From Eledone cirrhosa (taxonomy: Eukaryota), in NCBI GenBank assembly GCA_964016885.1, contig OZ024754.1, positions 4,340,001-4,404,000 of the forward strand: a DNA stretch of 64,000 nt, written 5' to 3'. The notes below the pieces were generated by a model. It worked only from the letters and a program-made list of their open reading frames with translations. It searched no databases and was not told the origin of the DNA. A program made the translations under genes and the position numbers. Below are positions 458 to 53,950 of the stretch, piece after piece. Position 1 is the first letter of the stretch. Every line of letters starts with the position of its first letter.

Positions 458-495
<38 letters not shown>

Positions 496-496
<1 letters not shown>

Positions 497-754
497 AAGA
501 TGAAATCGAAAATGCAACTGGAGTCTTATTTTTAAAAAAAATATATATATTTATTTGGTTCCTTTACCGGTTTCGCAGTTCTTCTGCTTTTCAAAAGTAG
601 AGTTGAGATGGAGGGTCTGTGGTTTTTCTCACAGACCCTCCATCTCAACTCTACTTTTGAAAAGCAGAAGAACTGCGAAACCGGTAAAGGAACCAAATAA
701 ATATATATATTTAAAAAAAAATAAGACTCCAGTTGCATTTTCGATTTCATCTTT
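496..754. repeat. Long near-perfect inverted repeat (~125-bp arms, 8-nt spacer)
   Basis: 496-621 is the reverse complement of 630-754 apart from an A/T-run difference. Confidence 0.95.
654..689 (+). ncRNA. Minimal hammerhead, U3-A8 core variant (mirror copy at 562-597 on minus)
   Basis: CUU-UUGAAAA-[GCAG aagaa CUGC]-GAAA-CCGG-UA^-AAG; palindromic CCGG loop III, short stem I. Confidence 0.6.
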
Positions 755-2522
755 TTTTCTTTATACTTTCACTCGTGTAGGACACCTCGGTTATTTTTCA
801 TTTTGTAAAAAAACCCCTCACTTTCTAATATATCTCTCTCTATATATATATGTGCCCAGAGATATTGAGATAGAACACCATTAACTAAGAAGGGTGATTC
901 TGACTCGAATGAAATCGTTTGCAAACATATAGAATAAATGCGCACACCTTCGTCCGTTTATTTCGTCATAATTTTATTTGAGTTCAATTTTAGAACTTTC
1001 TTCTGGGATAGTTGTGTTCGTGTGTGACGGGCGGAAACATGTTGTACAGTTAATATAATATAGATTGTTAATATTATTATTATCATCATCATCGCCGGTT
1101 GTTCTCGCGCTGTCGTAACAGCCGGATGTGAAATGCAAAAGACATATTGTGTGTCAGGATGGCGCCCCTACGTCTCCATTAGGGGTTAAGGACCTTTTTA
1201 CATTTACCTATATATATAATTAATCTTACGTTTGCATGCAACAAAATACATGCACACACACACACACACATATGTGTGTGTGTGTATAATTAATCTTAGG
1301 CCTTATTACATACATGCATCGAAATACACACACACACACACACACACAATGTGAGTGCGCAATAGCCAGCAGACAAGAAATACACTCACACCCTGCACAC
1401 ATAGAGAGAAAGACCAACAGACACACCGACAGACAGGCAGGCATACATACATACAGACAGACACGGGTACATGCGGACAAACTGACAAACTGACAACAAG
1501 CAGAAGGACCAACAAACGTATACATACATACAGCATGTAAAAACAACAACAACAACAACAACAAAATAGACCATCATTTAGTGACATCCTTATGTTTCCC
1601 TCCCTCTACCAACCCTCCTCCTTTCGATGGTAGCAGTGAGAGGTGTGGCGATCCATGCTCGAGAGTTTATTCTCATTGTTTTCTTTTCGCTTCGTTTTAT
1701 TTGTTATTATTATTATTTTTTCTATGTTTACTATTTATATATTATTGTTTTCCGTATTTTCATCTGGCATTCATCTAATCCGCTCAGTTGTCCTTTGCCG
1801 AAGAAAGAAGGGCAAACATATGCCAAGAGGCCATACAGAGGCGGTAGTATACACTATGATTAAAGACTTTCACCTGATCTATCGCGTTTCATTGCTTACG
1901 ACGCCATTTTGTTTATATATTTTATTTATTTATTACTAGTTTTATATTCTTTTATATCATTTATTTTGTCTTTTCTTGTTCCTATGGGATGGGCGGTAGT
2001 TTTTTTCTGTCCGTATTGTTCCTGTGCAATGGTTTACCTTCCAAATCCTATTGTCACCAATGGCGTGTTTTTGTCCCTCACTCGTATTGTTGTTACCTTG
2101 CTTCTGCTGATGCTGTTGCTACAACTGCTGCTGCTGCTGTTGCTGCAGTTGTGTATATGTAATTCTCTTTATTTCTTCTCCTTCTTCATCATATTCCACC
2201 ATTGATGATTTCATAAAAAAAAAAATCAGTCACTGGCAAAGATGATAATTATACTAATGCTCTTGATGATGGTGATGATGGTGATGATGGTGATGATGTT
2301 GATGGTGATGATAGTGATGGTGATGGTGTCTCTGATTATCATGGCGGTCATAATTCGAATTTCTAAGTTTCGTTTTCGTTGTTTTTGGTCGTCTTATTGA
2401 TCTCCATATACAATTGCTAATTATTGATAGTTATGAGCGTCTGTAGTGTACAGTGTGTGTGTGTGTGTGTGTGCATGTGTGTGCATGTATGTGTGTCTGA
2501 TTATGTGTATGTTGTTGTGTGA

Positions 2523-2585
<63 letters not shown>

Positions 2586-2989
2586 TGTTTGTGTATACAC
2601 ATATATTGCCGCTTCAATTTTTGATAATAGTGGGGTTTTGGTTGCTTTTTCTCAGATCGAGTGACCTCGTTGAGGGTATCTCGTGAGTGTGCGAGTGTGT
2701 GTGAGTGTCTGTGTGTGTGTGAGTGTGTGTGAGTGAGTGTCTGTGTGTGAGTGTGTGTGAGTGTGTGTGAGTGTCTGTGTGTGTTTGTGAGTGCGTCTAT
2801 ACCTTTTACGTACACATACACTGCTTATATAAGAGGAACAAATAAACAGAATAAGGTATATATGTATAGCAGAGAAACGTCTACTGAACGCCTAGAAAGA
2901 TAGGAATATCAAAATATAGTTTGAAACTGTGGTGCTATTGAGTTAGACATGGCCTGGGCCAATACTGGCCGAAACCTATCAATGTAAGT

Positions 2990-3020
<31 letters not shown>

Positions 3021-3258
3021 ACGGCGATGAATTAGTTTTGCGAGGTTTTTGATATATACACACACACAAACGCATGTGCAAAGAAGAGAAAATAAAATAA
3101 ACAAATAAATAAATATATAAACAGACTAAATAAAGATGGCGTAGAAAATACAATGCAACGGGAGGAAACAATAGCACCACTGACGATGTTGCAGATGTGC
3201 AACGAAAGAACTTTGATAAACTATATATATGTGTTTGTGTCTATATTGTATCAAGTAT

Positions 3259-3327
<69 letters not shown>

Positions 3328-3329
3328 TT

Positions 3330-3367
<38 letters not shown>

Positions 3368-3458
3368 CAAAAGGGATATTCAATTAGATGGTAATTCAAC
3401 AAATATAAATGTTTATAACTGATTCAGAGCACTCGACAAGTTTTCTGGAGTATAATAT

Positions 3459-3652
<194 letters not shown>

Positions 3653-3775
3653 CTGTGTGTGATGAAAGGTAGGATTTGAACACAGAGAGAACCAGAACGA
3701 ATATTAAAGGGACATACTATCGGTCGCTCTAATTAGTCTGCCATTTCTAAACATTACACATATATATATATATAT

Positions 3776-3983
3776 ATAGGAACCAGTAAGACCCCGACGG
3801 CTGAGCTCAAGCCGTTTCGACGGCTAATTCTGGACTAAATGCATTTAGTCCAGAATTAGCCGTCGAAACGGCTTGAGCTCAGCCGTCGGGGTCTTACTGG
3901 TTCCTATTACCCACTCTACTACCCCAAGTATTGAGTACTTTGGTGCGTTATGGTCCACCTGGTTCCTTACCACATTTCCTTCG
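3776..3983. repeat. Spacerless 132-bp palindrome (3776-3907) with a unique tail, in (TA)n
   Basis: Centre ctaaatGCatttag; second copy of the whole unit at 12721-12919. Confidence 0.95.
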
Positions 3984-4021
<38 letters not shown>

Positions 4022-4511
4022 GATTCTGTGTGGTTTTTAACGTTTGTGTTCTTACATATAGAACCTGAATTGGTGAAAAATAGGATTTGAACACAAGTAC
4101 AAAAAATGGAATAAGTACCGCAAGCATTCTACCCGATGTTCTAAAGACCCTGATAATTTGATACTATATATATCCATGTGTATGATATGTGTGTGTGTGC
4201 GTGCGGCTTTGCATGTGTGCGTGCGGCTTTGCATGTGTGTGAATGTGTATGTGAGTGCACGGTTCTTTACGTGTGTGTTATAGCGTGTGTTCTCGTTTAT
4301 GTGTGTGTGTGTGTCTTTAAATGTGTTCCAATGTAAATTTCAGTGTGAGTGCACGATTCTTTACGTGGGTGTAATATTGTGTGTGTGCTTGTGTATGTGT
4401 GTATGTGTGTGTGTGTGTGTGTCTTTAAATGTGTTCCAATGTGTGTAACTCTCAGTGTATGATATATATATATATATATGTATGCGGATGTGCAGTACTT
4501 TACGTGTGAGT

Positions 4512-4587
<76 letters not shown>

Positions 4588-4747
4588 AATAATATAGCCA
4601 AGTATCCCACGGCCAAGACCTTCCACGTAGGTCTCAGCAGTTTGCAATGACAAAGCCGGGTATGGGTACAGCTTGGAGCAACCCACGGTATCCAGTGAAA
4701 CAGGAGCTACGTGAAGAAAGAAGTAACAACACTTATTGTTTCGATAG

Positions 4748-22449: not shown

Positions 22450-22509
22450 TTTCATTCTGAGGATTGAAAGCAAAACCTTTTGCTTTTAAGAAACCACTGG
22501 TAAATGGAA
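22450..22509 (+). ncRNA. Type I hammerhead ribozyme (canonical core)
   Basis: UUUCAUU-CUGAGGA-[UUGAAAGCAAA accu UUUGCUUUUAA]-GAAA-CC acu GG-UA^-AAUGGAA: stem I 7 bp, stem II 11 bp. Confidence 0.85.
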
Positions 22510-22541
22510 TAATTGCCTTATGTTGTTTATTACATAATAAT

Positions 22542-36959: not shown

Positions 36960-38186
36960 TATCGGTCGCAACTCCAGGTAGAAGGAACAACGTGAAATAA
37001 AGTGTCTTGCTCAAGGACATAATGCATCGCCCGGTCCAGGAATTGAACCGACAACCTCACGATTGTGAATCCAGCTCTCTAACCAATCCAGCTCTCTAAC
37101 CAATCCAGTTCTCTATAAATCCAGCTCTCTAACCAATCCAGTTCTCTAACCAATCCAGCTCTCTAACCAATCCAGCTCTCTAACCAATCCAGTTCTCTAT
37201 AAATCCAGCTCTCTAACCAATCCAGTTCTCTAACCAATCCAGCTCTCTAACCAATCCAGTTCTCTAACCAATCCAGTTCTCTAACCAATCCCGCTCTCTA
37301 ACCAATCCAGCTCTCTAACCAATCCAGTTCTCTAACCAATCCAGCTCTCTAACCAATCCAGCTCTCTAACCAATCCAGCTCTCTAACCAATCCAGTTCTC
37401 TAACCAATCCAGCTCTCTAACCAATCCCGCTCTCTAACCAATCCAGCTCTCTAACCAATCCAGTTCTCTAACCAATCCAGCTCTCTAACCAATCCAGCTC
37501 TCTAACCAATCCAGCTCTCTAACCAATCCAGTTCTCTAACCAATCCAGCTCTCTAACCAATCCAGCTCTCTAACCAATCCAGTTCTCTAACCAATCCAGT
37601 TCTCTAACCAATCCAGCTCTTTAACCAATCCAGCTCTCTAACCAATCCAGTTCTCTAACCAATCCAGTTCTCTAACCAATCCAGCTCTCTAACCAATCCA
37701 GTTCTCTAACCAATCCCGCTCTCTAACCAATCCAGCTCTCTAACCAATCCAGTTCTCTAACCAATCCAGCTCTCTAACCAATCCAGTTCTCTAACCAATC
37801 CAGCTCTCTAACCAATCCAGTTCTCTAACCAATCCAGTTCTCTAACCAATCCAGCTCTCTAACCAATCCAGTTCTCTAACCAATCCCGCTCTCTAACCAA
37901 TCCAGTTCTCTAACCAATCCCGCTCTCTAACCAATCCAGCTCTCTAACCAATCCAGTTCTCTAACCAATCCAGCTCTCTAACCAATCCAGTTCTCTAACC
38001 AATCCAGTTCTCTAACCAATCCAGCTCTCTAACCAATCCAGTTCTCTAACCAATCCCGCTCTCTAACCAATCCAGCTCTCTAACCAATCCAGCTCTCTAA
38101 CCAATCCAGTTCTCTAACCAATCCAGCTCTCTAACCAATCCAGCTCTCTAACCAATCCAGTTCTCTAACCAATCAGCCACACGCCT
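36960..38186 (-). mobile_element. SINE family B whose head contains an expanded 17-bp minisatellite
   Basis: Body at 36960-37067, 5' tip at 38172-38186, array between. Confidence 0.8.
37068..38172. repeat. 17-bp minisatellite (aatccag(c/t)tctctaacc), ~65 units
   Basis: Direct inspection; about 1.1 kb. Confidence 0.95.
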
Positions 38187-38822
38187 ATATGATACAAAAC
38201 AGTTCGTATATTTATCTAAAACCCTTCTATCATAGGTTTTTGATATGAAATAGTGTGTTGAAACAAATATTGTTATATTAGGGGAGGGTCATGCTGTCCT
38301 AATATTGCCAAGAGCGGGGGCGGAGTGCTGCCATAATCACTGAGGTGTGATGAAAACTTTGAGAAACTATATTTATACTTATATTTTTAACTGTTGGTCA
38401 ATAAATGATAACAACAGCATCGTCCACAACACCAGCATCGGCCACAACAACAGCATCGGCCACAACAACAGCATCGGCCACAACAACAGCATCGGTCACA
38501 ACACCACCATCGACCACAACACCAACATCGACCACAACAACAGCATCGGCCACAACACCAACATCGACCACAACACCAGCATCGACCACAACACTACCAT
38601 CAGCCACAACACCACCATCGGCCACAACACCAGCATCGGCCACAACACCAGCATCGACCACAACAACAACATCGGCCACAACCCCCCAAATCATCCACAA
38701 CGCCACCACCCTAGCCGCCAATCTATGTGGCTACACAACCAATGATTATTACGAGTCGAAAGGATATTATCACAGTGCAATACCTTATTACATAAAAGCA
38801 TACAACATTATCAAAAGCATTT

Positions 38823-42575: not shown

Positions 42576-43060
42576 TCATTATGAACAACAACAGCACCAC
42601 CGATAAGAACAACACCCACCGCCACTACCATCATCATCATCATCAACAACATCGATATATATATATATATAGTAATAATATATATATATATATATATATA
42701 GTAATAATATATATATATATATATATAGTAATAATATACGATATTAAACAAATGGAAACTATATTTATAAAACCATATTTATATCATTATACATATTTCA
42801 GGGATACCATATTAAAAATATGGCATGCCTTCTTCAGATAAAATACAATATATAAGCAGTTTTATAAATAAATTTGACGTACCATAAAATATTGATCAAC
42901 TTCCATTTAAAAAGTTGGTTTGGGAGTGAAATGTTTGTAAATATTTAGTGTTAAATATAGTAATAATATATATAGTAATAATATATATATATATATATAT
43001 AGTAATTATATATATATATATAGTAATTATATATATAGTAATAATATATATATATATAGT

Positions 43061-43138
<78 letters not shown>

Positions 43139-43684
43139 ATATTAACAAATGGAAACTATATTTATAAAACCATATTTATTTCATTATACATATTTCAAGG
43201 ACACCAAAGCAAATTATGGTGCGCTTTCATCAGATAAAATATAATATAGATCAGTTTTATAAACAAATATTGACATACCCTTAAAAGAATGCGACCATGT
43301 CGGTTGGAAGCTCCCAAAAATTTGTTGAGTGCTTTATATCAGTTATAAAAATATGTGCTTGTTGTATCCCAACAAATTAAATATAACTTCTACACACACA
43401 TATATATATATATATAGTAATAATAATAAATTTGAAGACTAAAATCCAAAGAGGGCTATATATGTGTGATATTTAATCATAATTTTATAGTTTCAAGTTT
43501 CAAGGCCAAGTTATCCTGGTTAAATTACTTGAGGTTTTAATCTTTGACAATTAAATCTGTTCTCTAACTTACATTATATAACAACCACACATGCAGTAAG
43601 AAAAAAAAAATACAATGTATACACAGACACGTGTGTGTGTGTATGTGTGTGTGTGTGTGTGATTAAACATACATAGGTATATAC

Positions 43685-49767: not shown

Positions 49768-50019
49768 ATGTAAAATAAAGTAAAATAAAAAGTCAAATGT
49801 TTAAAATTTAGCTTCGTTTATTACTGCTATATATATTTCGGTGACAGCCATCTTTGGCTGTGACCTCTTCAGGCAGTCCGAATTAGTGTGGTAGAGACGA
49901 GTACATATGTTGTTGAGGTGTTTAACTTTGCCAAAATTGGCTGTCACCGAAATATATATAGCAGTAATAAACGAAGCTAAATTTTAAACATTTAAACTTT
50001 TTATTTTACTTTATTTTAT
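49768..50019. repeat. Inverted repeat (~85-bp arms) overlapping the 49823 hammerhead
   Basis: 49768-49850 pairs with 49937-50019; the right arm holds only the 3' half of the ribozyme. Confidence 0.9.
49823..49877 (-). ncRNA. Type I minimal hammerhead ribozyme
   Basis: ACUGC-CUGAAGA-[GGUcACAGCCA aaga UGGCUGUcACC]-GAAA-UAUAUA-UA^-GCAGU; palindromic loop III. Confidence 0.85.
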
Positions 50020-53301: not shown

Positions 53302-53305
<4 letters not shown>

Positions 53306-53950
53306 GTTGTCGAGAACAATACATAGGCCAGAAAAGAACAGCCTCCACCAACGCATGACTGTCCATAGATCCCAAATCAAAATACGGGAATTCAGAAAAA
53401 TACCGCTGAGTGAACACATTGATACCTGTGCCGCCCAAAATCATCCCAACTTTAGAATCTTTCCCCTCTACAAATATTTAAACATAATGCCGCCCACACC
53501 CAGCGCATCAGCAAGGAATCTCACTTTATTAACGAATACGGACCCCGTCTAAACACTTCTCCCTAAGACGAACCAACAACATACACACGTCCACATACAT
53601 ACCTACATCAACATACATCCAACATACATTTCTATCCACAAGTATCCCATACGGCAGGGCCTAATGGATTCCCTTGCAGTACGTACAATCTGGACACACT
53701 CACACACACGTTGGTGTTATGACAATACTATACATCATTTCACCTCTTTTATTATTGAACATTCACGTGACTTCTACCGACCAATAAAAATGATAGTGCT
53801 TATTCACGTGACATTCAACAACCAACCAAATCACGAACGCTCTATCTCAAAATTATTTTTGAAAAGCATTTGAAATGCGCAACCGGTAAAAAACTTAAAA
53901 CTAACACTGAATACTAACCATTACTTATTTATACTTATTCCTAATTAAAC
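53302..53950 (+). mobile_element. Penelope-like element 3' fragment (GIY-YIG endonuclease remnant + 3' UTR/pLTR with hammerhead)
   Basis: Starts right after (TA)n with SGCREQYIGQ, then a frameshift to KNSLHQRMTVHRSQIKIREFRKIPLSEHIDTC (C..YIG..L..R...H pattern). A hammerhead-like motif follows at 53856-53891. Confidence 0.75.
53856..53891 (+). ncRNA. Minimal hammerhead, U3-A8 variant, degenerate (GCAA for GAAA)
   Basis: UUU-UUGAAAA-[GCAU uugaa AUGC]-GCAA-CCGG-UA-AAA, about 300 nt downstream of the Penelope EN fragment on the same strand. Confidence 0.55.

Follow-up and report, generated by a model that had tools for sequence, protein, structure and literature searches.

Does a 260-bp palindrome near the start of a 64,000-nt stretch of Eledone cirrhosa DNA (contig OZ024754.1; the whole stretch is referred to here as the window) carry a natural hammerhead ribozyme with the core UUGAAAA, in which U3 and A8 take the places of C3 and G8, and what does its presence on both strands mean? 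An earlier note on this DNA had proposed such a lineage and had read the occurrence on both strands as a feature of the ribozyme. The window was analysed together with the surrounding genome (3.0 Gb, rich in microsatellites), in which motif families were counted by sequence pattern matching with the reversed pattern as a control.

The palindrome and its motif

Both the motif on the forward strand and its exact mirror on the reverse strand are present in the sequence as the note had described them (Table 1), and the palindrome is real, its arms (496-621 and 630-755) being identical apart from one T/A run. Stem I of the window motif does comprise three base pairs, a caveat already raised there. 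Comparison with the full-length element L076 revealed 95% identity over 127 nt between the left arm and the pseudo-LTR (pLTR) of this element, and 95% identity over 204 nt between the right arm and its positions 1034-1236. The palindrome is the 5'-truncated 3' end of a Penelope-like retrotransposon (PLE) plus its inverted copy, a standard Penelope structure; an inverted 5'-truncated copy and a one-sided tail are typical of PLEs, and (TA)n is their preferred target (Craig et al. 2021, PMC8557442). The occurrence on both strands is a trait of such insertions rather than of the ribozyme, and the two mirror copies count as a single insertion event, not as two observations. No A-to-G marks were found between the two arms of the window. 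The T/A run 3' of the motif (window 534-545 versus 706-718) is a frequent sole difference between the arms of inverted pairs, recurring in L003/L004 and L016/L017, and can be read as slippage or assembly error.

Table 1. Features of the palindrome, the second motif copy and related loci. Positions are those of the window unless a locus is named.
Feature	Positions	Strand	Basis or remark
(TA)n(GA)n microsatellite flank, likely target site	458-495	.	sequence
Left arm: inverted, 5'-truncated family A pLTR end, without 3' tail	496-621	-	
Mirror hammerhead motif in left arm	562-597	-	exact mirror of 654-689
Spacer at inversion junction, 8 nt	622-629	.	closed by TGTG/CACA microhomology
Right arm: 5'-truncated family A pLTR end plus 3' tail	630-832	+	
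Minimal type I hammerhead motif	654-689	+	cleavage predicted
Stem I, 3 bp	654-656/687-689	+	sequence
Core UUGAAAA	657-663	+	U3 657, A8 662, A9 663
Stem II	664-667/673-676	+	sequence
GAAA	677-680	+	sequence
Palindromic helix III, ACCGGU	680-685	+	sequence
A17, predicted cut site (cut 3' of A17)	686	+	inferred
3' tail of right arm, ~75 nt	about 756-832	+	
(TC)n(TA)n microsatellite flank, likely target site	833-851	.	sequence
Canonical-core hammerhead-like motif	22450-22510	+	
Canonical-core hammerhead-like motif	42790-42845	-	
Canonical-core hammerhead-like motif	43185-43240	-	
Canonical-core hammerhead-like motif	49830-49880	-	
Frameshifted remnant of family B ORF, GIY-YIG end	53302-53563	+	identity to intact protein
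Family B hammerhead-like motif	53856-53891	+	sequence, genome pattern counts
Family B core UUGAAAA	53859-53865	+	U3 53859
Family B stem II	53866-53870/53874-53878	+	
Family B GCAA (A13C)	53879-53882	+	replaces GAAA
Family B palindrome	53882-53887	+	stem I is 3-bp U-A
Family A upstream ORF and RT ORF, overlapping	L076:1259-2431 and 2371-4698		family B example L145
Family B loci with A13C motif	L144-L157		

The two arms would have been reverse-transcribed from two fixed start sites, one with and one without the tail, at a (TA)n break, and may then have been joined at a short microhomology; the TGTG/CACA of the inversion junction is also present in the element itself. Fold-back priming at this junction is the less fitting account: the two fixed arm ends, with and without tail, would agree better with two-sided copying, as would the two start sites and the extension on two strands shown for PAc, a Poseidon element of Anolis (PMC11167929).

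Family A and its parent element

The motif family of the window (family A) lies far beyond chance, because the pattern UUGAAAAGC-N7-12-GCGAAACCGGU gave 13,828 exact matches in the genome and its reversal gave 0; these are counts of motifs rather than insertions, inverted pairs being counted twice. A natural U3-A8 lineage, as the note had supposed, does exist, and the alternative that these copies carry private mutations of a CUGANGA family fell away in the same search, in which U3-A8 was the family consensus and the CUGANGA version of the pattern had 0 matches. Among the first 30 loci, stem I took the 4-bp form CCUU/AAGG in 21, the 3-bp form of the window in 5 and another form in 4, and the 3' tail was present in 15 of the 30. 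All 59 motif matches at ORF-linked family A loci had the 4-bp stem I, indicating that the window copy comes from a different subfamily.

Inverted pairing recurs across the family: among the first 100 listed matches, 22 of the 99 adjacent pairs stood in -/+ orientation within 1.5 kb (17 of them within 200 nt), other orientations were absent within that distance, and same-strand neighbours numbered two within 6 kb and none within 1.5 kb. At nine other inversion junctions the motifs lay 46-126 nt apart. That the mirror copies form a plus/minus ribozyme pair for symmetric rolling circle, or the partners of one dimer, might be read from the single motif on each strand, 91 nt apart, yet it is scarcely credible: the mirror is the reverse complement, so that each transcript holds one sense motif; the predicted probability of stem II falls from 0.83 in the arm alone to 0.00 within the palindrome; mirror motifs of family A can lie anywhere from 50 nt to more than 1,440 nt apart; and inverted 5'-truncated copies are standard for PLEs (PMC8557442). 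The mirror copy as dimer partner of the motif was rejected, as it is antisense and stem II is predicted to be lost in the palindrome fold.

Extension upstream of the motif reached a GIY-YIG C-terminus, and a protein search with this C-terminus gave 10,487 candidates, with 150 scored matches among them, many of these matches lying in frames of 775 aa. The family A ORF spans 775 aa and comprises an RT plus a C-terminal GIY-YIG; against Pfam, GIY-YIG scored above the curated cut-off and RVT_1 (E 4.9e-6) below it, and the translation carries DKG, YLDD and a C-X4-C-X2-C linker, the last being common to the family A, B and C proteins. In 29 of 30 protein-selected loci and in all 16 full-length regions, the motif shares the strand of the ORF and lies ~1,050 nt 3' of its stop; 4 of these 16 have a second same-strand motif ~1.3 kb upstream of the ORF. 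Family A shows a partial tandem with direct pLTRs (the tandem unit of L076 is 4,679 nt), an inverted copy truncated at its 5' end, and a tail on one side. The 16 intact ORFs showed a mean nucleotide identity of 99.5%; such intact-ORF sets are best matches and so biased young, showing young copies rather than the age of the whole family. The parent of family A is a young EN+ Penelope-like retrotransposon. A non-LTR retrozyme was rejected, the motif belonging to a 4.7-kb coding unit and not to short non-coding tandems.

With the Neptune- and Nematis-type EN+ PLEs of Craig et al. (PMC8557442), the element shares an RT with C-terminal GIY-YIG, the CX2-5CxxC linker given there for these two clades, partial tandems, the inverted 5'-truncated copy, the tail at one end and (TA)n targets; it is likened to them by linker and description, and its tail of ~75 nt compares with 30-40 bp in that account. 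Families A and B also have an upstream ORF of ~390-440 aa that overlaps the RT ORF in the -1 frame, with a conserved U UUU UUA slippery site at the overlap (in 16 of 17 full-length ORFs of A and in 12 of 13 of B) and no early Met in the RT frame; the upstream ORF of family A had no Pfam match. An ORF1 separated by a frameshift occurs in some PLEs (PMC8557442).

Four U3-A8 families and the A13C variant

U3-A8 is fixed in four motif families (A-D), about 28,000 motifs in all, with 11,427 genome matches for family B and 3,057 for families C and D together, against 4 in the control for the latter two. In 3 of 20 loci, the family C motif accompanies an ORF that shares 59% identity with that of A; no ORF match was obtained at family D loci, whose tie to a PLE is through the motif only. 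When one representative of each family was compared, U3, U4, G5, A6, A8, A9, the pair G10.1-C11.1, G12, A14 and ACCGGU were constant, and stem II pairs 2-4 differed on both sides in a compensated manner. Position 7 varies between A and U across the families, and stem I is 2-4 bp long (2-3 bp in B, C and D), its position 2 changing from U-A to A-U. The family A motif contains the core N3 U4 G5 A6 N7 N8 A9, G12 A13 A14, A15.1-U16.1 and H17, and its 3-8 pair is Watson-Crick, U3-A8 in place of C3-G8. Repeats aside, the hammerhead region alone matched significantly when the 1.2-kb non-coding parts of A and B were compared; sliding-window identity between these AT-rich parts was 0.27-0.74, with 0.68-0.73 in the motif windows, and did not single out the motif.

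A search for C3-G8 relatives with an ACCGGU helix III gave 166 matches versus 225 in the control, and no close C3-G8 relative of the U3-A8 families was seen in it, so that the 3-8 covariation rests on the general consensus rather than on a change within the clade. Most of the first 100 listed matches of that search belong to a small unrelated family (L158-L185) with a CUGAUGA core and ACCGGU. TCAA occurs 4-13 nt upstream of the core in L076, L145, L235 and L227, which cover all four families; it is complementary to UUGA (positions 3-6), with a weak alternative hairpin predicted for the window form, and may reflect plain descent.

As the note had anticipated, the lineage escapes a CUGANGA descriptor, and Rfam misses it too: no hammerhead family was detected in the window at the gathering threshold, nor for 631-760 at E up to 10, the other matches on the window sequence being microsatellite and hairpin noise. 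The best Rfam match of the arm was MALAT1, an identity rejected at E 0.98 and with that stretch absent from families C and D. The A-rich core and this match are what would speak for a repeat end that, being A-rich, looks like a hammerhead by chance, or for a different A-rich motif, for instance a triple-helix element. Such an origin is very improbable in view of four families with compensated stems, of a pLTR position where published PLE hammerheads sit, of the missing MALAT1-like stretch in C and D, and of the result of a strict descriptor: applied to 454 kb, made up of the window and 39 stretches taken at round coordinates, it detected 7 motifs, each with U3-A8 and 3 of them from the window itself, versus 0 in the reversed sequence.

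C3-G8 motifs that match more loosely also occur in the window. Besides the U3-A8 motifs, four hammerhead-like motifs there have a canonical C3-G8 core and come from other repeat families; window positions 42655-42889 and 43052-43286 are direct copies with 86% identity, 49768-50018 is a further inverted pair, and a 17-bp tandem satellite occupies 37049-38300 (~58 copies among those listed).

The core had also been reported to recur at 53856 with a compensatory stem II change. The change, G-C to U-A, is compensatory as claimed, and the first half of the core (UUGAAAA) recurs, but the second half does not, GCAA standing there for GAAA; neither this A13C substitution nor the host element had been recognised. 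C13 is present in 11,267 of the 11,427 family B matches (98.6%), the other 160 having another base. Substitutions of A13 strongly reduce hammerhead cleavage. A hammerhead is defined here by an invariant A13, which the family B motif lacks, and the motif is hence classed as hammerhead-like only; A13 belongs to the strict hammerhead core of Perreault et al. 2011 (PMC3088659). The family B ORF spans 784 aa, is 56% identical to that of family A and matches RVT_1 and GIY-YIG, and 11 intact copies showed a mean identity of 99.2% (best matches, thus biased young). Of 30 loci, 29 carry the GCAA motif 3' of the ORF, as do 13 of 14 longer regions, and the frameshifted remnant in the window is 94% identical to intact family B over 48 aa (94% over 319 nt at the nucleotide level). 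In one full-length B insertion, L147, both motif copies carry the mismatch C3-A8, so an intact 3-8 pair was unneeded for that insertion.

No fixed natural C13 family was found in the parts of the hammerhead literature and supplements searched; supplement file 1 of Cervera 2014 and the Lunse 2017 survey, the largest of these motifs, lie outside this scope, and the latter may contain one. In the part of the cricket satellite record consulted, A13 is altered in two sequences only, and the variants listed in the searched part of PMC3088659 are A6C, A6a, U13a and U15.1-A16.1, without the A13C of family B.

Folding, cleavage and known systems

A stable helix III would be available to family A solely as a dimer via ACCGGU. 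For the majority form with a 4-bp stem I, an imposed double hammerhead was predicted at -21.1 kcal/mol versus a dimer optimum of -22.5, and for the window subfamily at -15.5 versus -19.1; the corresponding values (imposed/optimum, kcal/mol) were -8.7/-17.9 for B, -7.9/-24.1 for C and -2.9/-16.3 for D. The dimer is thus near-optimal in the majority form, is less well backed by folding in the window form and fits poorly in B, C and D. It is likely that the palindrome, a truncated Penelope-like end with its inverted copy, holds a pLTR hammerhead that would be a weak dimer cutter of tandem RNA, the dimer reading and the weak cutting being adopted because of published precedent (PMC4209133). Two motifs would pair through the self-complementary ACCGGU, completing helix III, with U3-A8 standing in for the C3-G8 tertiary pair and a presumed cut after position 17, perhaps assisted by the element's protein. 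The window copy itself is probably inert, since it lacks an ORF, its stem I spans just 3 bp, and a transcript across the palindrome is predicted to enclose it in a 126-bp hairpin. Counter-evidence to cutting includes the 2-4 bp stem I, imposed dimers far from the optimum in the window subfamily and in B, C and D, the spread of A13C in B, the C3-A8 mismatch of L147, the failure of U3-A8 to rescue another hammerhead (PMC9901934) and the missing Rfam hammerhead match.

The novelty that the note had attached to the U3-A8 lineage does not survive the literature. Several natural hammerheads, described as active in vitro, show covariation from C3-G8 to U3-A8 (Perreault et al. 2011, PMC3088659); such cases are rare there, whereas here U3-A8 is fixed in large retrotransposon families. 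About 1,300 U3-A8 motifs were described in S. mansoni Cercyon elements, surfacing because the authors' descriptor had missed them, and the supplementary alignment has a PLE-linked S. mansoni(4) row with UUGAAAA (Cervera and de la Pena 2014, PMC4209133). Nor is simple tolerance of the swap, as had been stated, supported: a full scan of the double mutants of a type III hammerhead saw U3-A8 fail to rescue, and only G3-C8 did so (PMC9901934). The Schistosoma PLE motifs (PMC4209133) have in common with ours a type I form in the pLTR, U3-A8, a short stem I, a palindromic helix III and opposite-strand pairs (100-700 bp apart there, mostly truncated copies). Unlike those motifs, ours have no extra nucleotide between A9 and G10.1, a stem II of 4-5 bp, a 6-nt helix III palindrome and about 28,000 matches in four homogeneous families, and family B has GCAA against the GAAA consensus there. 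In the PAc element (PMC11167929), too, a pLTR hammerhead precedes two fixed element ends, but it has C3-G8, overlaps the ORF start and was shown to cut only with protein. Published PLE hammerheads cut poorly (PMC4209133, PMC11167929). No paper on cephalopod PLE hammerheads was found by title or abstract opening.

Alternatively, the motif could be a hammerhead descendant that no longer cuts and is retained as a structure or site bound by the RT-endonuclease, or one that serves the handling of transcripts, U3-A8, A13C and the 2-bp stem I then marking relaxed catalysis. The fixation of A13C in a young family B with intact ORFs and the stem I of just 2-3 bp in B, C and D would suit this, as would PAc catalytic mutants that still inserted in vitro, Anolis RNA without ends at the cut site (PMC11167929) and Naiads that spread without canonical hammerheads (PMC8557442). 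We nevertheless regard it as decidedly unlikely, given that families with 56-59% protein identity retain the 3-8 Watson-Crick pair, G12, U16.1 and H17 while the free position 7 varies, a pattern that binding alone would not obviously keep. More tentatively, and still rather unlikely, these elements may be a young autonomous Penelope clade in which U3-A8 is the dominant pLTR core and family B, although fixed for A13C, still cleaves; U3-A8 or the element's protein, for example, would then compensate for A13C. If true, this would be a natural triple-variant catalytic core, with an A13/C13 pair for testing the role of the hammerhead in PLEs.

Both the U3-A8 variant and its setting were already known, and the A13C sister family was not found in the parts of the literature searched. 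Descriptors that require CUGANGA overlook about 28,000 motifs of this genome. Two recently active sister families, A with GAAA and B with GCAA, provide a natural experiment on whether PLEs need their hammerheads to cut.
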